A stretch of 58,064 nt of DNA, the filler included, from Platydemus manokwari (lineage: Eukaryota), in the NCBI GenBank assembly GCA_037951405.1. It is 4 parts of 4 records of this genome, joined end to end, with 100 filler letters (N's around TTAATTAATTAA, not from the genome) between each part and the next. Parts side by side here need not be neighbours in the genome. Positions count along the whole stretch, not along the records: positions 25,024 to 38,604 come from JBBMOY011681400.1; 3 more parts are not named here. The stretch is one strand, 5' to 3'. Every line of letters begins with the position of its first letter. Within the stretch, counting starts at the first letter, position 1. A program made the translations under genes and the position numbers. This document shows positions 19,400 to 54,850 of the stretch, piece after piece. The notes under the pieces were generated by a model. The model was not told where the DNA came from, did not search any database, and saw only the letters and a program-made list of their open reading frames with translations.

Positions 19400-20160
19400 A
19401 ATACTCTGGCATTTAATGCATCGCCCTGGAAGACAAACGAGGAAAGCCAAAAGTTCTGACTTTGCTATAGTTTCCCTGAAACCATGACACATGTACCACA
19501 ATGTTGCAACCCAAATAAAAAGCTACAAACTGCTCACCATGATGCATGCCTGAACAAAATTGTTGATTGTATTCAATCAAAAAATATTATTGTAGTAGTG
19601 AGCCAAATGTGCTCACTGTTACCAGAAAGAAAGGATCGCATCGATTTATTGGTTACTGATCTAGAGCGAAAAAAGATCTTTCTGGTAGACATGAAATGTC
19701 CGATTGACACAATACAAAACTTCGAGGAGTCAAACAAAAATAATATAATTCCTTATATCTATTTTAGAAATGAGCTAACCAAATTGAAACCAGATTTCAA
19801 TATTGAGCTTTTCACGTGTATTATAGGCTCACTCGATACAGCTCCGGTCTCAACCGAAGCAATTTTGGCAATAATTGGCGTGCCGAAGAATAAAATCCAA
19901 AACCTGGTCAAAGAATACGCAACCTAAAATGTTGAACATTCGGCAAAAATCTGGAATTTTCTCTCGACCGGTGTTTTGATAGATTTTATCTAACACAAAA
20001 AACAATCAACCGATTCATACCCAACAGAAAGCCGAGATGAATGAATGAAAGAGCAAAACTGCCTTCACTAATCAAAGCTTTCAGACCCAAGCAGGTCACA
20101 ATCAATCCAATGAGCCCAACAAATTTGTATTTAAATAAATCTTGTAACACATATAATTGT
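19400..20160 (+). mobile_element. 5'-truncated non-LTR retrotransposon with restriction-like endonuclease (R2/R4/NeSL-type)
   Basis: CYSFPETMTHVPQCC (degenerate CCHC knuckle), AHHDACLNKI (RH[N/D] motif) and RIDLLVTDLERKKIFLVDMKCP (PD-(D/E)xK core) in ORF 19484-19927, followed by a likely 3' UTR. Confidence 0.85.
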
Positions 20161-24923: not shown

Positions 24924-25023
24924 NNNNNNNNNNNNNNNNNNNNNNNNNNNNNNNNNNNNNNNNNNNNTTAATTAATTAANNNNNNNNNNNNNNNNNNNNN
25001 NNNNNNNNNNNNNNNNNNNNNNN
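24924..25023. other. Assembly gap with artificial TTAATTAATTAA linker
   Basis: N44-TTAATTAATTAA-N44, identical at all three gaps. Confidence 0.97.
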
Positions 25024-25503
25024 TAACTCATGGATAATCACATTGGACGGATAATTATGCGACCACATATAAATAATTGCGATAATGTCCGATAGTCGTA
25101 AATGACTGCGAGAAAAGAAAGAGTCCGAACGAATTGAGCGACGGGTTTTGCATGTCTTGCAATACCAACGCATGCCATCAATCGAATATGCAAGGTTATT
25201 TAACGAGCAGCTATTGTTACATACATTACACATATATGTGTTGTGTAATAGTCGATATTTGGCTAACCATGAGATGCATGAACGCACGTCATTAGTGTCT
25301 TTCTGTAGTTGGCGCATTCGGTAATTTTCGGTAATTTCCCCCAATATTTGATCGTGTGGTAGAATAAATTGTGGTGCTTTTCTATTTGCCATCTAAAATG
25401 TGTAAATAATTATGTAAATTTTATAAAAATCTTAATACATCTTATAAAGCTAATCAATAAAATGTCAATAAATTATATTATTATATCGCCTACTTTAGGC
25501 GCC
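25024..25503 (-). mobile_element. Merlin (IS1595/ISXO2-like) DNA transposon 5' end, cut by the gap
   Basis: ORF from 25392 reads CISWLAKYRLL...CNVC...WYCKTCKTRRSIRSDSFFSRSHLRLSDIIAIIYMWS, the typical Merlin Zn-ribbon N-terminus. Candidate GG-starting TIR GGCGCCTAAAGTAGGCGA begins at 25503 on the minus strand. Confidence 0.85.
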
Positions 25504-27499
25504 ACTATATCATTTTATTGAAGATCAATTATTATGCATTTAAACAAATTTTTTAAATTTTTATATAAGTAAAGATTTTATTATTTTAAATAAATTCAAT
25601 TAAAATAAGTCCTATTCAATTAAAAAAAATAGTATAAACAATTCATTGCTTAAATTTCTAAAATATGTAAATTTCCAGTATGTTCTGAAAAGAAAATAAT
25701 TTGTCAGATATTTTGGAGTTTAACAAAATTAATTTGAATAAAATAGAAATATTGGTGTTAAAAGAATATTCAAATAAAAATAAATCATGTTATAATGCGC
25801 GATAAACAAATATAATGAAGTTTGCTATTTATTAACTTTTTCATATGATAAGGAAGTGTTCGATAGATAATATTAATAGTATTTAAAATATAAATAACCA
25901 TGGATTATATTATAAGGATTCCTGCAAAATATGAAATAATACTCAATAATAAGTAACTAAATTATTTGAAAAAATTTTTGTGAATAAAAGTAAGATAATG
26001 AATTTTACAATCGTTAATATATACATATCATGTAGCGTTCACGGTTAGATTCTTAGGTTATAAGAGTCAAGTGGTTATCTCTTTAATGAAATTACACAGC
26101 TACACAAAATAAAAAATACACATCATAGTGTTGGGTAGGTGACAAAAATAGCCAAAATGTTCACGGCACTTCGATTGTATGTACTCGCAAAATTTTTTCG
26201 GCCAACATTTCGATTTCTATTATTGTATTTCTTATCATTTTATCTCCTGTCATTATTCTGTCGATAATTATTATAACTATTATTATCTATGCTATTTCCC
26301 TGATTGCACATGAATTCATTATTTGCATTCCAATTGGGACTATTTAGAGATAGAGATCAAAATTAATTGTTTTTATAATAATTCGTAAAATTTATTTGAT
26401 CAAACTTTTTTCACTACACTCACCTTTCTAATAATTATGTTTATTAGTAACATAACAGGAAATAATAAATCAAAACGAAAATGTATGTTCATAAAATTTA
26501 TGGTGCTTCTTAAACTAACGATAATTAAAAACAAACCTATGCAATTATTTTTGCATAATTATTGAACTGTGATTAACTCACATTAATGGAAATACAAAGA
26601 GAAATAATTTATTATAATAAAAATTTTACAATGTTCTACCGCGTACTTATGTTTTCAAAAATTATATACCACACAAATCTTTGATGAGTCAAATATAAAT
26701 TGTCTCAAAAAAAATTTATAGGATACGAATTCAAAACGCTAATTAAAATTTTTGACTACTTATTTCCAAATAGATTGTTATTTTCAAAAAAAAATATTTG
26801 AATTAAAATTTCATATTTCTTGACGTTTCAAACTGTAATAGTTGCTTTGTAACTTCAAAAGAATTTTCAAACTGAACGTAAATTGGTGAAATGCGTAGTG
26901 TTTTTTACCGATTATTTATTTCATTCAACGACTTTACGATTTATTCGCAAATTATTTTACCAGCTGGCGTTTTCCTTATAATAATTTTTTTATTTATTTA
27001 GAACAGGAATAGTCGAAACGAGGTACAGTTAATCTAATACTTGCTGAGATTTTTCGAATAAACACTGATTTATAAATTTGCATAGCTACTAATTTCTCGA
27101 AATTGTGGTTGCTTATTTATTTATAATTGTAGTTGGAACCACTTATACTTTTTTGCGAATTCACTATTAATTTATAGTCTTGTAGCTAAATTTCTACTCT
27201 TAGAAGTACTATTTCAAAAATTGCTTTCTCTGACAAAGCAGTGTCTCATCAATTAGATTAGTGTGAAGTTTCCTAGTATTATTATATTATAGTATATTAT
27301 GAACTTATATTGTAGTACTTTTAATTTATTACTGTGCGTGATTATATTCATAGCGATTACTCCTATATTGATTTTCATCGATTAATATCATTTCTTCATT
27401 AATTTTAAATTATTTTTACTTGTTATTTTATCTTCATTTCGATTTATTCTCTTATATTTTTATCTATCCCTACTAATAGTATTATTTAATTTTATTACT

Positions 27500-28430
27500 T
27501 TTAAGTTTTCCTTTGCGCATACACCCAGTTATCGTTCAAATTCAAAATGTAGATTATTTATTAATACCAAAAACCATGACTATGAAACATAGAGATATGA
27601 TCTCACTGAAATTCCTTTTTTGATTTATGGTATGTGAGATTTCAAGTGGTCTAATTTTGGTGGAACTTCGTGGCTGCAAAAATTAATAGTACGAATAAAA
27701 GTTAATGTATAAAACTTTTTTTCCGATCTCTTAAGTAATTCTCAAGATTAATATTTAATTGATATCTGATCGATAGTAATTACCTCAACACAATTGTAAC
27801 TGATATTTATTGTCCGAGAAAATCAATTATTATTTGTATAATTTTATTTAAATTTTAATGAAGCATCAAATTTCTGTGTAACATGTTTAAATAGTTTATT
27901 CAGTTCCTCTGTTATGTGTTTAGTTTTTATAATGATGTATAATGCCGCTTTTACTTCATAATTTCTTTGGTAATTTATGTTTCTAATTATATTTCTTATT
28001 AAATTATCTTTTCCTGGTAGCAACAAAGGTCAATTGTTCTGAATTTTGAATAAGTAAAGCTTTTTTAATATCTGTAAAAAATTTTATTGTTGTTTTGTGT
28101 TCTATTTATTAATATTTTGTTTTTGTATTAAGCACCCCTTCATGTTTTGAGATCTCGCACCATTTCATCTCGCGAAATTTCATATAAGCTGAATTTGTTT
28201 TATTTTTAATTTGATAACGATTGTTGGTCGGTGTTTGAATTGATCTTCGAAGTTTTTTAATTATTGTCAGAACTACTTACTTATGTTATGATAACATAAA
28301 ACAATATTTGTTTTCTGTTTTATATGTATGGGGGTCATCGTATTCGTCAAATTATTGATGATTATAATTGCTGGTTGGCTTGGTGATTCAATTGTATAAA
28401 CAGGGTTTATCTACCAAAACCTTTAATTCA
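27500..28430 (-). mobile_element. Highly decayed LINE (L2/CR1-like ORF1 plus APE endonuclease) fragment
   Basis: Degenerate IIINNL and KHRPTIVIKL (ORF1-like) motifs, followed by weak endonuclease-like motifs. Many stops. Confidence 0.35.
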
Positions 28431-28469
28431 TTATAAAGACGTTCACTTTCAAATTTATTTTCAAAATGT

Positions 28470-29330
28470 CCGCCATTTTCATTAATGCAAAAACGAATTA
28501 GCTTCTCAAATGCTCGATAACATACCTCTTTATTACCCTTTCATCAACATCATGTACTGGGTTGCAAATTTTATTTTCAAGTTCATCTAATTTTGTGAAT
28601 AATTTTGATACAGGATTTCTTTTACAATGTTCCACAGAAAGAAATCAACTGACATTAAGTTTGGTGATCTAAGTGCCACTACAAATGATTTCTTCGGTGA
28701 CTATTCAAAGTGGTTCAAATGACTGATGATAGTTTGTATAAATGCAGTGGGGCTCCATCCGTTATGGTCACACTTCCGTCTTTTACATGACCTAGAAGGA
28801 TTTTTGAAGCATGGAAGGATAATTTGCATTGTTAACGATTGCTTTGAAGAAATAGATCACAGAAACTCCTTGTATCGAAATGTTTACACCGTATTTATGG
28901 ATTTCGTATGAAGACGATTTTGGTTTTTATCAGACTAAAAAACACCGTTATGATTATTAACTGATTCATTAAGATAGAACTTGGCTTCATTTGTTCAAAT
29001 AATTTTTTGTACTAATTATTGAAATCTTAGTATTTCAGTTGTCGATCATGGACATCTTCATTATGCTCCTGAAACATAGAAAAATGATAGTTCTTGAGAC
29101 CTAAATTCATTTTAAGAATGCGATGAACCGAAGATTTTGAAATGCTAAGGCTTTAGGTATCTTTCATATGGAGAAGCACTATCCATTTCATTCACACCAT
29201 TAACAACTCCTCCAACTTCATTGTCATAATTATTAATATTATTATCCTTAACTCTTCTAATTGATTCAAATCTCTCAATTAAAGAAGGAATTGACTTGAG
29301 ACAGCTATTTTATAAGTCGTTTGACTGCTG
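28470..29330 (-). mobile_element. Tc1/mariner (IS630 superfamily) transposase remnant
   Basis: Minus-strand frames give LSISKSSVHRILKMNLGLKNY, FYLNESVNNHN (FHLNG.VNKQN-like) and RSPNLMSVDFFLW (SPDLxPxDFFLWG-like). Frameshifted. Confidence 0.8.
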
Positions 29331-30229
29331 CATTTTTAAAGTTCAATGGATTCCTTGAGATTCGCTCGAGATCTTTATGTTTGATAGCTCATTAAAATAA
29401 TTTGATAAAAATAATGAGAGTAAAGACAACGATTTTATATAGATAATAATATAAAGAATTGTTAATGTATAATGAATTAATAATAATAATGAATTAATAA
29501 AAAAATCATTTTTGTTGAAATTGAAAATCAATTAAAAAAATATTTAGCACTAAAATCGAATTATAAATAAAAGTTGTAGAACGTGGGAATATTTAAGGTA
29601 ATTAATGGCCAGATTATTTCGGTTTACTGCTGATGACAAGTCAGTGAATGTGCATTGGCAAAAATTTTAAATTAACTGAAAGTAAAATATTAATTTTTCC
29701 GATTTAAAAAATATACAGAAACAAAGTAAGTTGTTATATTTATTAATATTTACTACAGATCTTGTTCGTGAGATGCTAGAATGTTAAAATTTATCTGCGG
29801 TATCGTATAATAGGTGTAGAATAAAAGTATTTGCTTATTAGGAGGTAAACTACTAATACCGCGATAAAATTTTATACGGTATCGCAAATTTGTCCTATTT
29901 TTGATAGAACATAGTCCTTGATGTTTTGCTAGATTTTGTATACACAATTTTAAGCAAAATTATAAGTACTTGAGTTTTTTCTTAGTGAGAACCGAGAGTT
30001 AAATATTGGAAGTTTAATCTTATTAAATAAGACATTCAATGAATGATGTGCTTTATTAACAAAATATCACCGCAAAACTAAGGCATCATAGAAAATATGA
30101 TGATTGTCAATGCAAACATATAAATAAAGCTCAGAATTAATTTGTATTATAATTTTTATTTATTAAATATGGTTTATACTACTACAATTATAAATAAAAT
30201 ATAAAATCTGCTACTATAGTTAAATTGGG

Positions 30230-31560
30230 AAGCTGAAGTATCCTGTAGTAATGTCATTTAGGAAAAATCATTCATAGTAGAATTGATTTTGGCAGAGCAA
30301 TAAAATGTTAGGTGCGAATTCTGTCGATGTCAATCAAGCTCTGAGAATCATCCCCTTACTGTCATTATTACTGAATTAAATATAATAAATTACTCATAGT
30401 GTATGTTTGATTATAATTTACATCGTCTTCTATTTCGAATTTGCGTTTACTTTTTGTGCATTTTTCTTTTTTTTCTTTGGGTTTATATAGTTTCTATTGT
30501 TCACTGAGATTGGTTAATCTCTTTATTAATGCTTTGTTTACGTTTTTTGTTATTTGTTTACATTTACGTTCCTGTCGTACGTATATGCTGCCATCCCTAG
30601 ACAGTCTTTACTCGTATTCCAATATATAAATATTCAAATGAATTAAAATATATAATTCTTGGCATCCCAGCTGGAATATATCCATAACTGTATTTTACAT
30701 CGATTCCATGTTCGTAATCTGAATCTGAAATACTCAATAATTTGGATAAATCTATATCATCTTTTACAATGCCATCGGTGATGTTGGGATCATCATTAAT
30801 TATAGAAAAATTTTGAAAATCGGTAGTGTGTACAGGTTTTTTAAAATGACTCAATGCGAAATTGGTTTTCCCAATTCCTAAGGGACCGATAAATAAGTGG
30901 GTTTTTTGATCCCAAACATCGAAATGAGATAAGTTAAATTTATTGTGTTGCGCCTCTGTGATAAAGCCAAACTCTGAATCTAAAGACTTGCAACATTTTT
31001 CTCTTTAAATAATAAAGTTCCGGTTTATTTAATTTTATTATAGACATGGCTGCTTTGCTTGACCTGGATGCAATGACATTCGGCCAAATGGACTCCATGT
31101 TAATTTTGGTTCGGGAACCCGATAAAACTTGATGGCCACCTTCAACTCTAGCATCATTCTTGATAGTAATCTATTTTTCGTTGGATGTTTGCCTCCATAA
31201 CCCCTTTGCAAAAATTCACATCCAATTATTTTCTGGCAGAGGCATAAGTCATACGTATAAAAATATTTTTAATTTGAAACAAAATAAATTATGTAAATAT
31301 GTAATACATGACCATAATTCATGGTTGCGAAAAGTTCAATGTGATGATGTAACAATTCTGAGACTTCTTGACCAACAACGAAACTGGCATTCTTATCCCA
31401 AAGTTTCATATTGTATGATTTTCTATTTTGAAAATCGCATAACGGTATGCTAAATCTTTAGTTAATGATTATGTTGGTATTTGATCTTTAGTTACAACAT
31501 TAGGAATGAACAATATAACTCGAGTATTGTTTTGCGCAGCTTTTCAATTCAATCAACTGA
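30230..31560 (-). pseudogene. rep: Endogenous CRESS-DNA-virus-like Rep (HUH rolling-circle endonuclease plus SF3 helicase), decayed
   Basis: In order on the minus strand: YRYAIFKIEN (motif I-like, ~31415-31450), VVGQEVSELLHHHIE (HUH motif II, HHH at 31341-31349), IDY/xIKNDARVEGG (YxxK motif III across a frameshift), HLFIGPLGIGKTNFALSHFKKP (Walker A, 30864-30887), DGIVKDDID (Walker B) and IDVKYSYGYIPAGMPRIIYFN (motif B'/C). Confidence 0.8.
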
Positions 31561-34500
31561 TTGTTGTCTGCTCTGTTTCCAATAGTTTCGTTTTACACTT
31601 TAGATTGATCTCTCCTTTTATACTCTTCTTGTTCTTCAGTCGACTACTCATTAACCGAGGAAATTAAAATCATAATTGTGATTTGATTTATTTTATTTTT
31701 CATTTGAAATTTTCTACATAATTTTATTGTTGGCTTATTTTGATAAAGTGGGATCATACTTGGAAGTTTGAAATTTAAATGATGATTTATTTTTTAATCG
31801 TCAATTTATTTTCTCTTGCTTTCGAAATGTTTACAATGGAAATAAAATATTTTTGGTCAAAATGTATTTATAATTACATTTTTTTTCATTATTTATCAAT
31901 AATATGAAATCATATAGTTTTATCCAAGGAATAATTTAGCCAAAGTATTGTCTTATAATGTTAAAATATAAGTTAAAAATAAAATAATTAGTTTATTCAA
32001 AACTCTTACATCTATATTAATTTGAGAATTCATGGGTTGTTTCGAGACAACTGATTTAAGCCTAATTTTTAATGATGATAATTTTATTACAAATTCATTC
32101 AATAGTAATTTATAATCTCTTATTTCTTAAAATGTTGGTCTCACTAAAAATGTTTTGAAACGTAGCATGTATCTCTTATTTATGCTGTAATTTTTGCTGA
32201 ATGTCAGCTTTTCATGTCCTAAACGTAATTGGCTCAGATATAAACCGACGTATATATAATTCTGATGAAGCATGAATTCGATAAGGAGTTATAGACCTGA
32301 CTACATTTTGATTTATTTTCATTAGATTTTTTAGTTTAGTTTTCAGCTTATTCTGTTTTAGTATTTATAAAGATTTAGTGGTGTTGAAATTTAGATATGT
32401 AGTAGATTGAATGATTAGTTTGTCCTCAACTTATGCATTATGGGAATGATCAAGCGAAAGTTCACAATTTTAATGTTGACATTTTATGGATTTTAAAGAA
32501 TAATAGATTTAAATGATCGTTTTAAACAAAAAATATATTTATATTAAAAGATGATGGTTCAGTTTAATTTATTTGAATGTTTTGATTTAATGGACTTTTG
32601 TGTTTGAACTTCTTAAATGGTTTTCAATTCGTTTTTAATGAGATTGTATCACCTACCATCACTAATAATTTACTTTCAGAAACTTTGTGAAGTAAACAGT
32701 TTTCAAGATTGTTTACATTAAAATTGATCTGCGGGGTCGTGAATGTTTAAAATGATGTTAATTTTTCAACAGTTTGATCTCGTAATAATTGATTTATTAT
32801 TATTTTGTCACAGAGGAACAATACAAATCAATTGTTTAAATAATTTTTATTTAAAACAAATCAATACAGGCTGATGAATTTTATAACAAAACCTTTAAAT
32901 TTTCTTTAAGAGTTTTCATAATATATTTTTTAAACAAATTATTATTTATATAACCAAAAGGTCTTATCCTATTGGTTTGTTTACTCAATTATTTAAAATA
33001 ATATTTTATCAAAGATGATTAGATTATCTTCTAAAATATTTCAAGTACATGGTTTTCAATTAATTATTAGATTCTAAACACTTGTAGTTGATTTTTGTAA
33101 AAGCTATTTGTGATGAAAATTCATCAGCTCATATAGTTGCTGAAGTTCGATACTTTGTACTTAAAATTGTTCGATCACCCTCAAATTTTTATTATTTTTT
33201 TTATTTTGGATCCTATGATTTACGATTTTAAAAGTTCTTTAACCTTTAAATTTTTTCTGACATTACAAATTTTATTATATAATTTATTGACATTTAAAAT
33301 TGCTAATAAATTTTTTCCTAGACCTTTTTAATTTAATTTAATTTAATTGTCTTAATTCACATACAATATTTGTTTTTTTAATTATAATTTTGTTTATCTA
33401 ATTATTTATAGACAATACTATATATTTTATACATATTTTATATAAATTGAATTGATTTACAAGTAATCACTAGTTTACAAATAATCACAAATGATAAACT
33501 AGTGTTATTTTTGCATTTATAAATTGACTCGAAAAAAATTAAATTTTACCAAAATACACAAAAAAGAAAATAGCATCGACGATAATAACAAAATTGTGTT
33601 CTTACGGAACTATTCAATTACGAATAAATTCTCCCAGTGCTAATGAAAATAGTAATCTTACTAATTAGTGCATTATTTTCAAAAGTTATATTTTATTTGT
33701 AAAATATCTACCTCGAAACTATAGATTGAACCCAGTTCAACTAAACTATAAATAAAATTTCAAATTCAATTAACTGTGGTTAAGGAAGCCTTATACCTAA
33801 CCACCTTCAAGTCTCTAGTGAAACCAGGGGTCTATTACGGTCAATGATATGAGTCATCTCCCTAAAATTCCTTTATCTGAATGGCATTTTAACTTATAAA
33901 ATTGATAAAAGGATTTCATGGTTATTTGTCAAAATTTATTAATTAATCTGATTTATTATTATTATTCTTCACCATTAATTGTGAATTGTCTTACAATTTT
34001 ATTTTATTTATCTTTATTATTTATTCTATTATTTTATCTATATTCTAAATTGTTAAACATATTTTTATTGAACGCAAATTTTAGAGTCAGATTATAAATA
34101 AACTTGGAACTTATTTGATAGTATTTTTATAAATTGAACCTAAATTATAACCCATCAAACCATTACAGTATCATTCAACGCTTAATCACTTATTATACAA
34201 ATATATTCCTTATGTTTTTTTGTATAATATGTGTATAACATTTTATATAACATTTATTACGGCTTTGAATTTTTCTGAAGATTTGATTGCTTTAATTTTG
34301 TTGAATAATTATTTAAAATTTAATTTGCTGTTGTTATGGCTATTTTAATTTTGGAACTACTAAATCTTAGCATGCTCTTTATTCCTAAATATGACTCCTT
34401 ACACTATATAGGTTTGCACTGAATTAATCAACATATAATTCTCATTATAAAGCTATATTTATTATGAAACTTTAGAAAGAGTTGATCAGACATCGTATAA

Positions 34501-37500
34501 ATATGATTTAAGTAACTGTCTATTGTTTAAAAATTTAGGGAACAGTGTTATATCTCTTTTGAAACAAACACAGGCTGCTTCTGGGTTCTCTCAAACTAAT
34601 ATCGTATCCGGCCGGGTCTCACCACAATATCTAATAACTTAATCAAAATGCTTCTTCTGATTCTTAGATCTTCCATAACCACACTTGTTGCGAGTTACGT
34701 TAAATAAATACAACGCTTACCTTAGTCAATAAGTCTGATTGGATGTCTATTTAAAAAGTTATTTCCGCTTTTTAAGTACTAAATATTGTTTCTAATTCAA
34801 TATGACAATTACTATTTAGTAGCTCGAGCTTCCTGTTTTTCGATTTTTTCACGATTTTTTAATTGTTTTATAATTATTAACATTTTAAAGCATAATTTAT
34901 TATTGCATATTATTGGGTTTAATAAAATTATAGGTTTGACATAGCCTGGATCAAAACAAATTTAAAATTACGAGTATTAAATGAGTGTTGAAATCCTATA
35001 AATAAATTTAGCACTATTATATTTTATTGATAATCGTTAATTATTATAACTGATTCCAAAAATTTTATGTAACTTTATGGACAGCTATGAGATTAAATTG
35101 CAAGAAATTACAAAATTAAAGTTAATTATTTTCGTTTTTAAAATAACTATTTTGATATTATTGTTTTACTCAAAAAAATTACGTTTTTTTCTAACTTTAC
35201 TCGTAACTTATCAACGTGTAGAAATTTGATCGAATAATTCGGATTACCATGAAAATGAATTAAGCTTGGATTGTAACAGATTATTAGATTGGATTATTGT
35301 GTAGGAAGTATAATATTACATCCAATTTATTAATTAAATTGGAGGTTTGTAGTGTTTGTTATTGGCTTTTACTGGTCCTAGAAGGCTTCCGTATTTTGTA
35401 TCAGGTGGTTCGAAAAGTTCTCAATGCATTCTGAATTCCTTGTTGTAATATAAATGATTTAATGCATTCCTTGAATAGCTTGTGTTCGCATTTCCCAAAG
35501 AGCGCTGTTGAAACCAATGATGTTGATATCAAGCATTTATAAATATCACATTCATTGATAAATTGTTTATATAAGAGAAATACCTCTATTATTCTTAACT
35601 TATCCTATAAGTAGGTCAGGATAGTGTCTTCATAATGTCAAAGACTTGAAACTCAATTAGTACTTTTTGATCAATAATAGCCTCTATTTTTTGATAAGCT
35701 AGGCTTTGGTCCCATTGATTGATTAATATTTTTATTCTATTTTTTTATGATTCTTTCTCTTTTATACATAATTTCTTCGATTAATGAGTAATTTCCCGAG
35801 TAAATATTACTGAAAATTAATTAAAAATTACTGAAATATTTAAAGGTTGAAAATATACAATTTATTGACTGTTGCAACAAGAATTATTTTTCCCGCTGCA
35901 GCAAGTTTTGGTGGTAATAAACGTAGACAATAATATGTTAATAAAATTATAATGATTATATATGCACAGAGATATAATGAATATAATAAAGACTCGATTA
36001 ATATTGGTAGAATTTAAGAAAGCGAAAGTTAAACAAGAATCAAAAGAACACAAAAATGTGCCAAAATGCCCATCGCACTGCACACGTAGATTGTTGCAAA
36101 ATATCAATACGAGGGATATTTGAAAATTAAATGGAGGCGACTGTTAATTAATTAATGATTACATGATATTTGCGATAACAATACCGCTATTAATTATAAT
36201 GTAAAATTTACTCAAAAAATCTTCTTTAGTTAATAGTGCTTATAATCTTTACTCACTTCTTTTATTACTTCCACTCTGAATCCGAACATAATATTTTTTT
36301 AGTGAGTGAATGTTATTATGTGCTCTGACTTTATATATTATTTTTCTACTGATGATTATCGTTAGTTTTGTCTCCATTCATTTTAGGTTTTATTTATTCT
36401 ATAGTAATTTTTCGTTATTCCATTTTAGTGTCTGGTTACTGTTTTTATTTGTTCATAAAATATGTAACAATTTTCTGATTTACTATTTTTGTTTCGCTTC
36501 TATTTTTATTTTCTTTTTGAATAAAACAACATTTTATTTTTCTCATATCACTTATTGCTATTTTTTTATTATTATTTCATCTTATTTGCTTTATATATGG
36601 TTTATGATTTTAATCAATTATTTAGAATTTGTCGAATGTAATGCCGATTTACAATTTATAATATTTATGAAACAATAATCATACAAATAGATAATTATTC
36701 AAAATCATAATCATACAAAAAGTAATTATGAAATAATATTATTGGATACTATTATTATGAAATAATCAGGTCAAGCTGAAGTAAAATAATGCAAATCAAA
36801 GCTTTTTAAAAGTTGAAGAGAATCAATTCAAAAGTTTAAATAGCAGTTTAAAGATCAGTTAAATGTAAAGATATTGAATCAGTTTTGGATTTTAGAATCG
36901 GTTTGATTTTAAATCAGTTAGATTTGGATTGATTGTTTTAGAATGTGAGTTTGGAGCAAGATTGGAATTGTATTGATTATTTGGAATTGTTTGATATTGT
37001 TGAGACCCGATTTGGGTTTTAGATTTTGGAGAGATGTTTTTATTGATGTTTGGGTTTTCGTTTTTGGTGAGATGCTGATGTTGAATTTTGGTTTTAGTTG
37101 GGTGCTACCCTTAACATATTGATATCGAACTCGATATAGAAAAAATAAAAACTTAAAAATAAATGCTAGCATCAGAATTGGTTTAACAATCGAAAAAAGA
37201 AAATGTATATTAAAAAGTTTATCGATTATAGAAATATGGTAATTTCTCCAAAAAATTTATTTGTGTTATCACTATTAAAACACAAGAAGTCAATAAAACT
37301 ATTATTGACCACAAGAAAATATACTTACTAGAAATGAAAAATAAACACTTTAAGAATTATACTAATATCTCAAGTATAAAGATGATTGCATAAGAGTTTC
37401 CGACCATAAAAGACCGGAATTTTTCTCGAGAATCGATTTTTTATGGGGTTTTGTGCGTTTGTTACAATCTTAAGGTTTTACTTTTCATTTGTTAGAACTT

Positions 37501-38528
37501 TGAGAACTTGTTCTTGTATTTGATTGGTAGATTTTCTTCAATTTCTTATATAATTGATGCATTTCGATGTTCGTTATTTTGTGTATGCATTGAAAAAAAA
37601 ATAATTTTGATTTGAAGATCTATGATAGGCTTTGGGCATGTAGTTTTATTATGCCCGAATGGCGTTTTGTTCAGGATTTTAGTCTTGTTTGTCATACACT
37701 ACAAAATTTAGGTGTTAATTTTTGTGTGTATTGATCAATGTATTATATATTGATTTTTATTTTTTAAGATTTTAAAAGTTCTCTTAAGGATTTTGATTTA
37801 AGATTTCCTTCATTTTCCTTCTGATTGTTCACTCCATTGAAATCAGAGAGTTTTATTAATCTCTGGCTCGCTACTGGGGAAGCATGTGTGACTAGTCAAT
37901 GTGTATACCCTTCTTAATTCCATATTTTGATAGTAATTTTAAAATGTTTTTCACATGGGTCTTATGTCATTATTTATTTTATTTGAAAAGATTTGAATTT
38001 TATTGAATTCGATTTTAGTTTATTTTAATGAACAAATTATATAGTTATCATGATTATGTTGGGAGATAAGCTAGGATTGGCCGTCACCAAATACCACGAA
38101 CAAATGATACAGTTACTTTGTCTGACAATTGCATATATAATACAAAATGCTAATAAATTCAGAATGGCATGAACGCTCATTAATATCGATAAAATTTGCA
38201 AAGCTTTAATTCCGTACTAATGCAATTGCTTCAAAAACTTGTGCGGAGAAAAATAATATAGAACATAACCTGAATAGTTTTGAAACTTATATATTTCTAA
38301 AGTTGTCCATTATAACTGTTAACTATCAAAATTTAAATTTTGCTACAAGAATTAGATGAAGTACATTCTTCAAAATGTAGGGATTATGCTGTTCTAATGT
38401 ATGTCAATATTGTGAGTTCGCTATGTTGGGTGAAGCGTGTTGTCATCAAATGGAAGATAGACAATTTAGGTAATATTTTATAGATGTTGTGAAATCCTAT
38501 GGAAAGAGTGTTTAGAATATAAAGTAAA

Positions 38529-38604
38529 TATTAGGTCATCCGAAAAGTAATGTCCGTTTTTTATTAAAAGAATAAAATTGAAAAAGATTTTGATTGAGAT
38601 TTAT
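38529..38604. mobile_element. Mariner-type terminal inverted repeat abutting the gap
   Basis: TA followed by TTAGGTCATCCGAAAAGTAATGTCCGTTTTT resembles mariner TIRs. Repeats commonly terminate contigs. Confidence 0.55.
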
Positions 38605-38704
38605 NNNNNNNNNNNNNNNNNNNNNNNNNNNNNNNNNNNNNNNNNNNNTTAATTAATTAANNNNNNNNNNNNNNNNNNNNNNNNNNNNNNNNNNNNNNNN
38701 NNNN
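38605..38704. other. Assembly gap with artificial linker
   Basis: N44-TTAATTAATTAA-N44. Confidence 0.97.
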
Positions 38705-44125: not shown

Positions 44126-45406
44126 TTAAATTAATTCTCTTGTAAAGTGTTTCTCAATGTCTAAAAAACGTCTTAAACCCCAATTTGGAGTTCTTAAAAT
44201 AGTATCAGATTCCAATGACTTTAAAATATTTCCATTGACATCAGTAAAAATTTTCCACTGTTTCTTCTGAATATTTTTAGTAACATTTAATGAAGGATCT
44301 AGATGGAAATTGCAAGATAAATAGCAATCATCGAACTTTGGAACCAATAATCCTTCTCCAAGATTAATGTGATAAATTTCAGGATTGAATTGAATCATAT
44401 AACGAAAAAAATCAATGAGAAGAACACTTAGATCGACTGAATTAGCTGAAATGATTGGGAATTTGTTATGAGTCAATTCCTTTAAAGGTGGAATTAAATT
44501 TTGCGATTGTAGATAATGGATAATTAACGAAACAATTTTAAAACCGGTGAAAAACATACTCGGACCATCATTTAATACTTCTTCATGTATATAAATTTGT
44601 TTAATAACTACACACAATGGTGCGAAATAATCATATGATATACAAAGAAGACGTATCAATTCACACATCTCTAAAGACGTATCATGTTTTATAGATATAT
44701 CAACATTTATGTTCAAAATGTCGTCAAAATAATGGCAAATTGGAAACTTACAGCAATAAACACAAGGATTGATCATATAAGGATTAAGTGTTTTAAGATG
44801 TCGTGTAACCTTTTTTAATATGTCTACTGAACTAAATTCGGTATTGTTATCTAAAATAATCTTCATGTCTAAATCACTATTAAATTTTCCTAATCCACTG
44901 AGAGTTGACCCAAATATTCTCATGCGTGCCGAAGGAAGTAATTCTCTAACACTGTCATCAATATTGCTTAAATAGCAATTTCTCAGTTTGATATCATATT
45001 CAGAAATTTTATAAAAATCATAAAATATCTGAATTTGTTCGGATAATGATGATGCTTTGTAAATAGAATTCCAAAACACTTGAGGGGATCTATCGATTTC
45101 AACATAATTTATAGATGACTTAATAAAGTTCATAGCATTATTTAGATTTGAATGTGGTATACTGCGAATTGCTTTAGTTTCACGAAATAATCTAAAATTG
45201 ATTGAACGAATAGGTTTAAGATTCATGAAAGCTCTTGTAATATCATAGTCAGAAGAACATACCATTAGTGATATCTTATTATATGGCCAATATATTATTT
45301 CCTTAATTCCACAGTTTCTAAATTTGTATACTAAATCTGGCAATGAGAGGATATTGTTGTAAAATATAATACTATTTCGAGCAATTTCTTTGTTGACAGG
45401 ATTCAT
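44126..45406 (-). CDS. MTPAP: Non-canonical poly(A) polymerase, mitochondrial PAP (MTPAP/PAPD1)-like, single exon, 426 aa
   Basis: Pol-beta NTase signature FGSTLSGLGKFNSDLDM, third Asp in NVDISI, PAP-associated region LDPSLNVTKNI and a C-terminal WGL motif. The ORF is uninterrupted. Confidence 0.8.
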   Translation of the reverse strand: MNPVNKEIARNSIIFYNNILSLPDLVYKFRNCGIKEIIYWPYNKISLMVCSSDYDITRAFMNLKPIRSINFRLFRETKAIRSIPHSNLNNAMNFIKSSINYVEIDRSPQVFWNSIYKASSLSEQIQIFYDFYKISEYDIKLRNCYLSNIDDSVRELLPSARMRIFGSTLSGLGKFNSDLDMKIILDNNTEFSSVDILKKVTRHLKTLNPYMINPCVYCCKFPICHYFDDILNINVDISIKHDTSLEMCELIRLLCISYDYFAPLCVVIKQIYIHEEVLNDGPSMFFTGFKIVSLIIHYLQSQNLIPPLKELTHNKFPIISANSVDLSVLLIDFFRYMIQFNPEIYHINLGEGLLVPKFDDCYLSCNFHLDPSLNVTKNIQKKQWKIFTDVNGNILKSLESDTILRTPNWGLRRFLDIEKHFTRELI

Positions 45407-48173
45407 AATCTAAAATTAAATAATAATATTTTAAAAAACGAACAATGGAATTATATTTTTTAAAATACTTATTCTACAATTTATTAAATATATAATTATC
45501 TAAAATAATGCCAATTTGTATGTGTACTTAAATTAAACAAAATACCTATTTCTTTATTTTTGGTTTAAAGTAGAATTAATTAGATTTTCAAAAACATTTG
45601 TTAAATCATGCATAATAAATGAATGAAGTACAATTCTTTGAAAACTTACTTCAAAAATAGTAATATAAATTTGAAATTGACCTCATAAATCTTAAACAGA
45701 AATTAGAATAAGATAATTCCATTATCCATTCTTTCCAAGTGATTTCTGAAATTGAAATTAGAAAATGCGTAAGTTTAAATCCTTAGATTAAAAACATTCA
45801 CAAAATGTTAAGTTTTTCGAACAAAAGTATTACAGCGATGAATGCAAACATGGTGATCACTGCATAATTATGAAATAGTTATCAAGAAAAACATTAATAA
45901 TATCCAAAAACTACATATTATGTTAATTTTTTATAAATGAGAAGCTAATCAATGAAATAATAATTGCATGTTTCTATTTTGCAAAGATTTAAGAAGTCTT
46001 GTAACAATAAATAATTGGCTCGCAAGCCGTTTCGTTTTAATGTAGGGATAGCAAAATCAAACACCCTTCATCTAAAACAAATATTGAGCAGTAAATATTT
46101 CCAGGTTGTTTTATATTTTAACTTAATTATTTCAAATATTTTTATGTATGATTGAAAAATATTTTTATATAAATCTATCTAATAGTTATTACTTGACTAA
46201 TAAAATAATGAAACCAGTTCCACATCCTTGTCAGAGTCTACACATAAATCGTTAGGTGGCTATTTTCTATCCAGTGTTCATGTGGTTCTTTAAATTAAAA
46301 GTAAAATAAAGAATTTTAAAGATACGAAATCATTAAATAATGTTATAAATATATTGAAATTTTAATACTTGGTGAAGACGATTCTGATGATATTAGCTTA
46401 AAAGTTGAAGCAGAAGATTTTATGAAGTGATTTTCTGAGAATAAGAAATAAATCTTTCAGCAACCTTCTACTTATATCTTGTCAGTTGAATCATTAGGGT
46501 ATATACAAACTAGAGATGGATTATAAATAGATTAAAATAGCACGAATAATGTGAAAAAGCAATTGAAGTTGTATCAAAAAGCAGTCTGTGCACAAATAAA
46601 AATGTACTAAGATTTATGCGTATATATAATGTAATAAATAGTGTAAATAGATGCGCACTAGAAAGCAGTAAATAAAAAAAAGTCGAAGTAAGGTTGGCAA
46701 GTATGTTTTCCAATCTCTTTGAACGATGTTTGAGAAAGATAAAGATTCGAATGATATGAAATAAAGGAGTTCTATGGCGAAAATCAATGTGATAAAAGGA
46801 ATTTCGCCGCTTTATCGACGAAGTTGGTATAATGAAGAAATTTTGAATATTTCAACCAGGAATAAAATCAGTTGATGTTGTTGAGAAAAGACGATTTAAA
46901 CATATTCGAATTATTATTGAGGAGCATAGTCGTTGGTCATAATATTTCATTGAGAAAATGTTACACGAAAATATTTCAGTTTTTATGGCTTCTTCTTTCA
47001 ATTAGAAACTAACAAACTTGATCAAGCATCTGATTTTAATTTAAAGAAAATAAATGACACAGGATCACTGACAGTAATTAATAATTTAAAGATCTAAATT
47101 AAAAATTTGACAAAGCATCTTTTAGAAAATATTGTTATTAGGCCTTATAGAAGTCTTGGAACTTCCTTTTAGTAATAGTTTCCACGAAAAGTGGATCAAT
47201 GAGGATATACTTAGACTTTCGATAAGTGAAAGATTTACAAATGCGTGTTATCTAAACGTTACTGGAGTCATCAAATGTCCCAAAAGTCTTTTATTAAGGT
47301 TCCATCAATGTGAATCACACTTAATCTAACAGATGAGTTGGTTTGATTTGTTTTTTGGTTAAAAGTATTTTCATGCCATGATGAATGATATTATAGTGTC
47401 CTAGTGATAGTTGTTTATTTAAGCTGATTATTCTGGGTTATAATTGTAAATCACAATTGTGCATATTAAAAAAAATCATCAATGTTTTATACTTAAAATT
47501 AAAATTAGTTGAAAACACTAACAATCAAAAAATATATCACAATGAGATGAGCACCCGAAAGACACAGAGTTTACCAACCAAGATATCTTTATATCATATA
47601 CTTCTCGAAAAGGTTCACATCAGTAGTCTAATTTATTTTTAATTTTTTAATAATGCAACAGTTATTTAATGCATATAACAATAGAACAATGAAGCGATCA
47701 CAAAAATTTGCTTCGGATGTAATGTTGCTGATTTTAAGATATGGAAGAATTTACACATAAATAGTGAATAAGAAAAATAATAGTGCCGGAGTTAATAATT
47801 TTGTCTCCAAATAATAATAGTCCAAAATTAGAGAAGCGGATATTGAAGTTTTTATGTGAATTTGTGGGAAACGGTTAAATTTAAAACAATTAAATTTAAA
47901 ATATGATTGAAGTTTCGTAGAATTTTTCTTGCAAGAATTTATCTTTTATATTTACTTTTTGGGCAATTTACTGTTTTTGGACAACTGTTTTTAAAACATT
48001 TCTTATTTTTACTTACCTTTGATTGGTTTGTGCTCATTCTTTTTTCGTTTAATACTTTTTTGTTTATTTATTGTTTATCTGCTGTTTTCAATATATATAT
48101 ATATTGGGTGTATAACCTTAAAATTTCGATTTGATAAAAGATGTCGCTGGGAGTATTGCTTGCATATAATGTC

Positions 48174-48273
48174 NNNNNNNNNNNNNNNNNNNNNNNNNNN
48201 NNNNNNNNNNNNNNNNNTTAATTAATTAANNNNNNNNNNNNNNNNNNNNNNNNNNNNNNNNNNNNNNNNNNNN
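48174..48273. other. Assembly gap with artificial linker
   Basis: N44-TTAATTAATTAA-N44. Confidence 0.97.
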
Positions 48274-51200: not shown

Positions 51201-53819
51201 TCATATTAGGCAGGAGGAATTATAATCCTTCATCTTTATCAATAAGCTTTGCAAATGAATAGACATGTTTACCATGATAATTTTAAAGTTTACTTTTTTT
51301 ATCACTTTCTGTTAAGTACCAGTGAGAAAAATCAAAAGCTTTGCAAACAATTACTTAATAATATATGGTTTATTGCGAGGATTAATTATATAAATTATTT
51401 ATATGACGGTTATCTAACTCAGTTAAATGAAACATTAGCGAGGAACATTTGTGCATAAGTATATAAAAGTGAAATTATATATCTCCTTATTCCTACAAGG
51501 AACTATAAGTTGCTCTTTCACACACACACACATATAAAGTGAAGTCTAATGAAAGATATTGTGTGTAGCTTTTATATTTTATAATTATTCCTGTATATAA
51601 TTATAATTTCTGGGAGAAAGCCCGATGCTTTGAAATTTCTGTTTTCCTGTTTATATATGTTTTTATAAATAACCATGTAGAATTAAAATGTTGGATAATA
51701 TAAATAGAAAATATTAATAGGAAATTAAGTCGATAAAATTCGCTAAATAGAGACTTAATAACCAATTATAAAAAAATATAAATAAAATGTTGAAATCCCA
51801 TCAAAATAAATCAATTGACACACAATAAAGTCAGGAGTATATAAGCAATCTGTACAATTTTGAGTTATAGTCAGGAACATTTAATTCAAGTAGATAAGAA
51901 AAAGATAGATATCACTTTAAAAACAAAATGTCGAGAAAGCTAGGAGGAAGTATTGACCGAATTTGATACTATTTTATGATTACGATTTTCTCAATAAGCA
52001 AAAATAAGTTTTTATTAATTAACAATAATTTGTTTTTTCTCAATTTTCCTATCACGAATTTTAGCTGCATTTACATCCTTTGTCGTGTTCCTAGCCACAT
52101 AAGGGTTTCATAATTTAATAATAGAAATAATAAAAGTATTCTAATAATATTTGTGTTTACTTTGGAACATTTTAGTTGATACAGTTCCAATGTGCATATT
52201 TAATGCCCATATAATATTTAGCTTACTGTCGATGATTTCCTCTTGCTCAACATAATTTTTATTTCAAGATCACTGACAGACTTTCTGAAAATATTGGTAT
52301 TACATTTGGCTTTCGAATGTTGTATTAATTCATATAAATTCATGTATCAGCACCATGTTAGGCCTTTTTTAGATCAACGCTACAAGTTGATGATTCATAT
52401 TTAAGTCCGTGTACCATGTACTTCGGACCTCAATAACCAAGAAACCCTAATCTATTCGTTCCTAAGGGAACAGTGATTTCACAATCTGTGTAAAACCAAA
52501 CCAATAAATCTTATTATTTACCAGGAAGCTTTTAAAGTAATAGTTTTGTAGATCTTCATATTTATCTTTATGTTTAACTCCGTGGGGTTCCCTAGTATCA
52601 TTATCATATAATTCTTCCAAAGTGATTTTACAAACCTTCTATAAAAAGTTAACGACTACTAACTCACTATTAAATTATTAATGCGAAGTTGAAATGCTTT
52701 GATAACACAAAGTTATCGTAACTATAAAGTCATCGTTTAACTATTAGTTTCTCATATACACACTATTGGTACTGGAATTCTTGAATAAAGTATTTAAATG
52801 GCAATTTATCAATTAAACCATCATAAATTTACATTATTCAGTGTCGATGGTAGCAATAATGTGTCTGAGCAAACATTCAATCGTTTAGGGATTTTTTGAC
52901 CATTATTAAGAATTTTATCTTCACTTATTTCAATATTTTTTACTTTAATTTCTTCTTTAAAGTTTTGAAAATTAGTTTTATCAATATCGCTTGAATTGGT
53001 AGAGATACATTATTCATTTATATAATTTCGATTTATCAGTTTTTCTAAAAATTTCAACTTAAAAAGTCAAAATTAAATTTTTATATATTTTTCTCAAAAT
53101 GCCATTTTCAACCGGATTTTTATGAAATTAGAAATACAACAGATGGTCACTAATTTTAGATAGATATTTTATCGATACCAGAACAAAACAAACCCACATA
53201 CTTCCTATTTTTGTTGTGTTCGAAATATGTATTCTGTAATATTCAAAATAGTTTTCATTCGAAAAATTAGTATATAAATTACTGCGAATATTTATTTAAT
53301 ATTGCCCATGTAGATTCCAAAAATAGTATATTCAGATTCAGGGTTACTGAATTCTTCCTGTTCCACAGATTATGGTATAATTATGTACGAATAAAATAGA
53401 TTTTTGAAGTTGCAAATAGAAGGAGTTGCAAAGTCAATATAAAATTTCCGAGAACCATAGATATATTTAATAATAATATTTTATTTTATAAGTAGTTTAA
53501 ACATGAAATATGAAAACTGACAAAATTATAAATTTCATACTTCTAGCGATAACGATATTGCTCTAAATGAAAGTCATTTTTTAAATCTTAAAACTATACT
53601 CGGGACTATAGTGTTAGCATTAATTTTTCTCTCAGTCAATAATCTTGAATTCTGTTCCAATTAAGAAGATTTTATGAGCGATTTAAAAAAAAAATTATGG
53701 ATTTATAAGTCTAAGTATATTTCCAGGTACAACTTTTATATATAATGTGGTTTATCTTACTAAATTTCTTATAATTTAGCTTTCATTACAAAAATTTATA
53801 AATAAACTTAAATTTATAA

Positions 53820-54850
53820 TAGAAATAATGAAAAAAATCACATTTTATTTTATAAAATTACACTTTTGCCTACTTTTTTTTTACCGAGTTAAACTTTATT
53901 CCAGAGTTTTTGTTAACATAACCGAATTATTGTTTATTATTATTCTAGATACGCACCACAACCGGGGTTAGTTATTAAGCATTTTGTTTAATAATATCTT
54001 TTTGTTGTTATTTTTCGAATGAATGATAAAGTAAACGTGTAGAATTCCTATTAATATTTGACTTTTTAAAAATTACAATTTCTAATTAGTGTTTGCATAA
54101 AGTTTATTCTATAGATTTTGTTAACAAAACTGATCTATCGTTTATTATTCTTATAGATACGGACCACAACCGGGGTTAGTGATTAAGAATTTTGTTTAAT
54201 AATGCCATTTTGTTCTTTATTTTTTGAATGAATGAAGAAGTAAAGCCGTACAAATTCATATTATTATATTGAAAATATTAATATATTAATTTTAAAAATT
54301 ATATTTCCAACTAGCTTTTTTCTAGGTTAAAGTTTATTCCAAAAATATTTTGTTAACTGAGCCGATTTATCGTTAATTATTTGTCCAGTTATAGAGCCCA
54401 CCGGAGTTAGTTATTGAGAATTTCATTTAATAACATGTTTCGTTGTCAATTTTCGAATGAATGGAGATAGGAAATGGTACGGTTGATTGATAATTAATTA
54501 AAAATCCAAACTGATTTATTGAAAAATTAACATTTTATTATATAAAATTGCAATTTTAACTAGTTTCGAATCAAGCTAAAGTTAAATTTTTAAAAGTTTT
54601 TGTTAATAAAACAATTTCATCTTTTATAATTCTTATAGTTATGGACCACAACCAGGGTTAGTCATTGAGAATTTTGTTTAAAATTGTTTTTTTTTGCTGT
54701 TATTTTTCGGATGAATGAAGTTATGTGGCAAAAATTCATACTGAAAAATAATGAAAAAATAATATTTTATTTTTAAAAATTAAAAATCTAACTAGGTTTA
54801 CACAACAGTTAAGGTTTATTCTAAAGGTTTTCGTTACTGGGGCTAGTTTA
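53820..54850 (+). repeat. Tandem ~210-250 bp intron-exon repeat, about 4.3 units
   Basis: Recurring blocks aa(g)tttattc..a..ttttgttaac, tag[exon]gttagt.att(a/g)ag.attttgtttaa and ttttcgaatgaatg, with exon starts at 53949, 54157, 54389 and 54639. Confidence 0.85.

Follow-up and report, generated by a model that had tools for sequence, protein, structure and literature searches.

A decayed Rep gene, composed of an HUH endonuclease and an SF3 helicase, lies on the minus strand at 31463-30624 of the stretch of Platydemus manokwari DNA analysed here (58,064 nt, termed the window, to which all coordinates refer), and this interval represents the full span of detectable homology. The remnant (the fossil) is broken into four collinear pieces in three frames. 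The window itself consists of four pieces of DNA separated by 100-nt spacers at 24924-25023, 38605-38704 and 48174-48273; the three spacers are identical and contain a 12-nt linker that has stop codons in every frame, which we take to be the mark of joined contigs. Features of the 13.6-kb piece carrying the fossil are as follows:

24924..25023, no strand: spacer of 44 N, 12-nt linker and 44 N, left end of the piece
25024..25392, minus: zinc-finger ORF fragment, cut by the spacer, with weak Pfam zinc-finger hits below cut-off
28388..29310, minus: decayed transposase relic in a multi-copy repeat, labelled by eye
30597..31004, minus: Rep piece 4, an uninterrupted frame of 135 aa encoding SF3 Walker A, Walker B and motif C
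30662-30642, minus: PRIIYFN of the Rep fossil
30704, minus: IDVKY of the Rep fossil
30770-30756, minus: Walker B of the Rep fossil, IVKDD
30887-30864, minus: Walker A of the Rep fossil, GPLGIGKT
30988..31164, minus: Rep piece 3, remaining motif III region and predicted oligomerisation helices (profile 90-149, 40.9 bits)
31163..31255, minus: Rep piece 2, end of the HUH domain to motif III (profile 59-89, 20.4 bits)
31174-31163, minus: motif III of the Rep fossil, IDYY
31253..31313, minus: intron-like AT-rich insert of ~55-61 nt directly after motif II; the frame differs across it
31311..31463, minus: Rep piece 1, HUH domain with motif I, GQE and motif II (profile 8-59, 33.2 bits)
31346-31332, minus: motif II of the Rep fossil, HHIEL
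31373, minus: GQE of the Rep fossil
31457-31443, minus: motif I-like RFSIP of the Rep fossil
38605..38704, no strand: spacer, 100 nt, right end of the piece

The sequence-only reading had described Rep motifs in canonical order on the minus strand, and all of those it named were found when their positions were checked. RCR motifs I, II and III are ordered and include a single catalytic tyrosine, though they are split across frames, and the C-terminal SF3 helicase carries Walker A, Walker B and motif C, with Walker B differing from the family pattern at one position. A search with X-read frames yielded the first relative, P0004 (1 of 277 candidates confirmed, E 7e-15), and a search with P0004 returned 375 proteins at E<=0.001, 150 of which entered further work. 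A clade profile of 21 database relatives, built without any window sequence, gave four collinear matches of 33.2, 20.4, 40.9 and 125.6 bits, compared with a top score of 7.3 bits among 4328 domains elsewhere in the window. With a broader profile of 84 sequences, the 3' pieces scored 20.3 and 124.7 bits and the 5' pieces weakly, at 7.7 and 0.7 bits, the background reaching 6.0 bits at most. By tblastn, the window was matched by 143 of 151 relatives (E<=0.01), with 149/149 HSPs on the minus strand between 30 and 32 kb. Pfam assigned no family to any of four readings of the fossil frames. The matches exceed chance, and the Rep observation is confirmed as real at the level of sequence. Its extent is smaller than initially proposed, as the outer margins at 30230-30620 and 31464-31560 are without significant match, and 3' of 30624 no significant homology to the Rep profile was found. 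The open tail formerly given as 85 aa is the part, counted from a TTG codon, of a stop-to-stop ORF of 135 aa (30597-31004). Motif III had at first been read as YGGK within a single frame, which was abandoned when closer relatives revealed the frame changes.

Piece 1 is 45% identical to P0014 over 47 aa and contains an in-frame stop at 31460. Both following pieces were compared with P0025: piece 2 (55% identity, 29 aa) has an in-frame stop at 31228 and a frame shift at its 3' end, near 31165, and piece 3 (51% identity, 57 aa) has a frame shift near 30990. Within piece 4 the match extends over 30959-30663 (profile 160-264, 125.6 bits), with 51-59% identity to P0012, P0013, P0025 and P0073 versus 31% to the Rep of the extrachromosomal element PEVE, and five residues are deleted after Walker B relative to the relatives. 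An arginine finger is unrecognisable in the fossil, scoring 0.9-4.1 bits, equal to background; 11 of the 16 relatives scanned, several being fragments, carry one. The inactivating damage thereby comprises two stops, three frame changes, a short deletion and a missing 3' end. A 1678-nt contig of sequencing run X1 reproduces 30269-31946 without gaps and with 2 differences, which makes assembly errors an unlikely source of the breaks, although X1 may be the window's own source data. Judged by its reading frames, this copy cannot encode a two-domain Rep and is most likely functionless, barring a supply of small RNAs.

In CRESS Reps the tyrosine of motif III nicks one DNA strand and a ring-shaped helicase unwinds the DNA, so that the element's own genome is copied in the nucleus. 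Profile and fold searches for the family assignment used relatives P0004 and P0010 and alignment A3 rather than the broken copy itself. Reps fill the top 11 PDB rows for the family profile (E 1e-22 to 5e-5), which upholds the CRESS assignment made beforehand; cellular ATPases appear at E>=4e-4 only and are confined to the Walker A region. P0004 falls among CRESS Rep clusters of the ESM Atlas (score 0.97), part of its neighbours being bacterial Rep clusters. The AlphaFold model of P0010, whose helicase is 45% identical to that of the fossil, has a pLDDT of 88.9; against the PDB, Vientovirus Rep ranks first, and SF3 proteins of AAV, papillomavirus and PCV2 as well as some MCMs follow lower down with low TM-scores, while unclassified CRESS Reps are on top against BFVD, with the PEVE Rep at rank 7. 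According to the passages available from PMC10288648, Helitrons fuse a Y2 Rep to an SF1B helicase, and Replitrons possess a Y1 Rep without helicase and short terminal direct repeats. The helicase of the fossil is of the SF3 type, which sets it apart from Helitrons, and its very presence sets it apart from Replitrons. Among GTDB prokaryote genomes, 0 of 19 pattern matches were confirmed as relatives, and none was confirmed in a plasmid search. A cellular AAA+ ATPase, a Helitron, Replitron or Polinton, a bacterial pCRESS sequence or contamination could be invoked on account of the bacterial clusters near P0004 and of the ATPases and MCMs in the lower PDB ranks; such an origin has a next to negligible probability and is already largely refuted, given one-tyrosine HUH motifs combined with a fused SF3 helicase, the differing architecture of Helitrons and Replitrons, the lack of GTDB and plasmid matches and the recurrence of stops and frameshifts in the X1 contig, which is gap-free with 2 differences over 1678 nt. 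Collectively, the sequence and model comparisons point to a CRESS-type Rep rather than a cellular ATPase or Helitron.

To place the fossil within this family, a careful tree was calculated from 27 rows that we picked from the top hits, including two named references. The fossil and the PEVE Rep share one 11-row clade with a support of 99/98, in which P0025 is nearest to the fossil (92/90, 54% identity). The fossil falls outside PEVE's own 4-row subclade and, as the clade base is unresolved, cannot be described as nested in it. A quick tree of 50 rows concurs, with both in a 12-row clade (support 96). Of 21 clusters looked up, 2 bear an informative name. PEVE sits on a long branch, and its helicase is 31% identical to that of the fossil over 141 columns, below the 41% of P0159, the Rep of a CRESS virus from a bird sample; the link to PEVE therefore depends on the tree. 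The connection with PEVE proposed in the sequence-only reading is borne out by the 99/98 clade. An origin from an ssDNA virus or Rep-based mobile element, proposed along with it, is supported, but the closest named relative, PEVE, is not a small circular genome, its segment record L001 (5699 nt) having 243-nt terminal inverted repeats. Likewise, the proposed link between this Rep lineage and its host is supported, but it is not new, since PIVE_3p of Schmidtea mediterranea precedes it. In the portions of Liu et al. 2011 (PMC3198968) at hand, PIVE is an integrated element of S. mediterranea, and PIVE_3p is listed beside two PEVE large-segment Reps in the tree labels of supplementary file 1. Because an integrated PEVE-type Rep is thus already published, the fossil is a further example and not a new system. 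Among other sources seen as excerpts, the PEVE Rep is mentioned by Rosario et al. 2018 (PMC6186406), PEVE is cited, by citation only, in PMC9241645, and fluke genomes are described as holding CRESS-derived capsid sequences (PMC10269781). No report of this fossil or of the wider PEVE clade was found in the literature searched, which included few subscription papers.

Further members of the clade were sought in sequence collections. IMG/VR scans confirmed none of 11 candidates with P0004 and 1 of 63 with alignment A2, namely PEVE itself; the sole IMG/VR match of P0001 (L010) proved to be a chance match on a phage-like contig without Rep ORF. A metagenome scan confirmed 7 of 196 candidates, of which L002-L004 are PEVE-subclade copies, whereas L005-L008 are distant and were left out of further analysis. 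In L002:1-4596, a PEVE-subclade Rep gene (P0004) lies inside a non-LTR retrotransposon with a Ulp1-type protease and a zf-RVT domain, and an independent integration of a PEVE-clade Rep is seen here; L003 and L004 are further broken Rep copies with the same dataset prefix. By eye, about three tandem repeats of ~120 nt follow the Rep gene in L002.

Since profile position 59 is met on both of its sides, the insert at 31253..31313 represents extra sequence. Its GC content is 0.16, compared with 0.31-0.37 in the matched pieces, and a GT lies at 31312, with 0 of 7 GT..AG pairs fitting without cutting into matched sequence. None of the 718 61-nt windows in the matched pieces is as low in GC, versus 13% across the 13.6-kb piece, and for this reason the insert need not be an intron. 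The case for introns is stronger in those relatives for which DNA is available. PEVE's motif I is located upstream of the deposited 272-aa Rep that lacks it, in a different frame. A 56-nt GT..AG intron is predicted at L001:4028-4083 (best of 26 pairs, +14.7 bits), the removal of which puts RCR motif I in frame and moves the start of the profile match from 36 to 9. A predicted 40-nt intron ranks 1 of 18 in L004 (+16.7 bits), and another of 40 nt is joint first of 27 in L002, where it is weak (+4.5 bits); the L003 candidate (rank 8 of 10) is unsupported. Additional AT-rich GT..AG candidates, unscored, occur upstream of motif I in L002-L004. P0013 and P0039 contain an extra hydrophobic stretch right before motif II, of 17 residues in P0013, which is possibly a read-through intron at another position. 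PEVE-clade Rep genes, that of PEVE included, are accordingly predicted to carry short introns at several positions.

Beside the fossil, no capsid gene, origin hairpin or terminal repeat was found. Searches for repeats, hairpins, nonamers and terminal repeats gave AT-rich chance matches only, the canonical nonanucleotide is absent from 28.5-34 kb with no stem-loop origin near the fossil, and no inverted terminal match pairs the 3.5 kb upstream of it with the 3.6 kb downstream. Loose NANTATTAC matches number 25 in the window and 2 in 28.5-34 kb, the latter outside any hairpin loop. A Pfam scan of the six X-read frames of 25024-38604 returned one weak zinc finger, and the same scan missed Rep itself. 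Apart from Rep, the ORFs and repeats of the PEVE large segment (L001) have no match in the window, and neither companion ORFs of PEVE or PIVE (NS1/E1-like helicase, others) nor their terminal inverted repeats occur around the fossil, the PEVE small segment lying outside the queries. Signs of an origin and of a circular genome may have been lost or never captured. One PEVE ORF, L001:207-1040 (minus), is a candidate capsid gene, for now a lead only: its ESM features resemble ssDNA-virus capsids (smacovirus 0.95), and each of the 10 rows shown is a cluster containing capsid families, although only 5 of the top ten have a family in common. This ORF yielded no Pfam match, no PDB sequence match and no other IMG/VR relative, its single-sequence fold was unusable (pLDDT 31.5), and no match to it lies around the fossil. 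The PEVE intron or capsid may already have been noted in the original PEVE description or in Repbase.

These data bear on whether the fossil could stem from an ordinary small circular CRESS virus with Rep, capsid and nonanucleotide stem-loop, that is, from a sister lineage and not from a PEVE-like linear element. We regard this as unlikely. By structure and sequence, cruciviruses and unclassified CRESS viruses are the best named neighbours outside the clade, the fossil is not nested within the PEVE subclade, and its nearest relatives P0025, P0012, P0013 and P0010, known from contigs of 1.0-4.3 kb, may have genomes of either form; the sole named member of the clade, however, has terminal inverted repeats, and the canonical nonanucleotide is missing in 28.5-34 kb, where the two loose matches lie outside hairpin loops.

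As the window consists of four separate pieces, adjacency between features on different pieces is unsafe evidence. ETS, ArfGAP, glutamate dehydrogenase and poly(A)-polymerase-like genes are located on pieces other than that of the fossil. The ArfGAP exon has 106 hits, the named organisms among them all being flatworms at 69-78% identity (best of all hits, 89%) but none a planarian, and a GC content of 25-30% suits a planarian without proving it. Because N spacers part these host genes from the fossil, the host identity of its own piece is inferred. On the other pieces, we observed a long single-frame ORF for a 354-aa ETS-domain protein at 171-1235, and another at 44126-45409 (minus) for a 427-aa mitochondrial poly(A) polymerase-like protein, to which only two close relatives exist (49-52% identity). 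A 155-aa ORF at 19460-19927 (plus), adjoining the glutamate dehydrogenase exon, resembles by eye the restriction-like endonuclease end of a non-LTR retrotransposon and has no Pfam match; a diverged tandem-type repeat region with ~69% self-identity spans 53810-54825.

The 13.6-kb piece of the fossil is AT-rich, rich in multi-copy repeats and devoid of recognised host genes. Its relic at 28388..29310, presumably Tc1/mariner-like from its motifs, gave no Pfam match, and X1 variant contigs are abundant over it (e.g. 21 contigs at 28487); the fragment at 25024..25392 we take to resemble a Merlin/ISXO2-type transposase. A search of sequencing runs listed the stretch in one run, X1, and in no RNA run. 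At 11.8, the depth of the fossil contig there resembles that of nearby unique contigs (6.4-10.6 in 7 other listed long contigs), depth not being copy number. The fossil is continuous with its repeat-rich flanks in the assembly; X1 gives no independent bridge, as neither fossil edge is spanned by 31 letters in the contigs listed, and, of the listed records, 4 shares 18 nt with 5 and is separated from 3 by a 61-nt hole. Before 31953, one X1 contig has a long loose end, which marks the limit of a repeat or perhaps a different allele close to the element's upstream edge. Decay and repeat-rich flanks make integration in a flatworm chromosome likely.

Whether integration was a one-off viral capture or the fossil is a dead copy of a Rep-driven, capsid-less, PIVE-like transposon that spread within its host genome can be addressed from the same data. 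The latter is highly unlikely in our estimation. No second near-identical copy occurs among the X1 rows listed, at 85% likeness, where contigs prove presence and not absence; the other-letter rows at 31521 and 31823 stem from a single contig bearing all depth, and the 3.5 kb upstream and 3.6 kb downstream lack an inverted terminal match. In favour of the transposon, PIVE is in Repbase as an integrated repeat, such elements are treated as ssDNA-virus-derived transposons by Liu et al. 2011 (PMC3198968), short host-style introns suit long nuclear residence, and the broken copies L003 and L004 share their dataset prefix with the integrated L002.

We therefore conclude, with a probability of roughly 0.75, that the fossil is a decayed PEVE-clade Rep gene that probably entered a flatworm chromosome as DNA and has decayed since. 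The source would have been a nuclear DNA virus or virus-like element of flatworms resembling PEVE, and a piece of its genome may have entered a germline or stem-cell chromosome via end-joining repair or Rep-driven strand transfer, and the integrated copy would then have decayed without selection. If the insert is an intron, its retention favours capture of DNA over retroposition of a spliced mRNA.

Animal genomes commonly contain CRESS-type Rep fossils, and since a PEVE-related one is known in a planarian, this fossil alone is modest news. It does offer a host label that would connect the metagenomic Reps P0025, P0012, P0013, P0010, P0039 and P0073 to flatworms, and it shows the PEVE lineage, little studied since 2002, to be wider than its single sequenced element. 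A more far-reaching reading, possible if doubtful at present, is that the fossil represents a second branch of unclassified flatworm nuclear DNA viruses typified by PEVE. Such viruses would combine a CRESS-type Rep with a linear, inverted-repeat-ended genome and an ssDNA-virus-type capsid gene, their Rep genes would have gained short host-style introns repeatedly, at up to six positions, and they would integrate into hosts repeatedly; PEVE would then be a true virus, the deposited Rep of which is without motif I only through an unannotated 56-nt intron. If true, the predicted introns and the capsid lead would alter the classification of PEVE, and both are leads worth following.

Spliceosomal introns are also present in Reps of genomoviruses, some geminiviruses and porcine circovirus, those of the PEVE clade being predicted only. 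Zhao et al. (10.1101/687855) trace Rep introns back to two origins, both with a fixed location, in an accessible text that leaves planarians unmentioned; the introns predicted here measure 40-60 nt and, in contrast to these fixed places, occupy several positions. Among known systems, unclassified CRESS Reps (such as that of Periparus ater CRESS-DNA-virus sp., QTE03536.1), PCV2 and Vientovirus share RCR motifs I-III, the oligomerisation region, SF3 Walker A/B and motif C with the fossil and are the best fold matches, yet they fall outside its 11-row clade, and the CRESS virus hallmarks of capsid gene, circular form and stem-loop origin are shown by none of the sequence around the fossil. PIVE comprises a PEVE-related Rep integrated in a planarian genome and, going by the publication, resembles in this the probably integrated fossil; it encodes a parvovirus-NS1-like PIVE_1p in the parts of that source seen and is catalogued as a repeat, whereas the fossil is a lone broken Rep. 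PEVE differs from the fossil in being extrachromosomal, in its 243-nt terminal inverted repeats and in further ORFs, none of which match the window, and the two belong to separate sub-lineages with 31% helicase identity. Both nevertheless possess the HUH and SF3 layout within a shared supported clade, probably the same host phylum, a short GT-starting insert within the HUH domain, albeit at different positions, and the common signature GQE / HxE/Q / GKTNFAL / KY-IPAG-RII.
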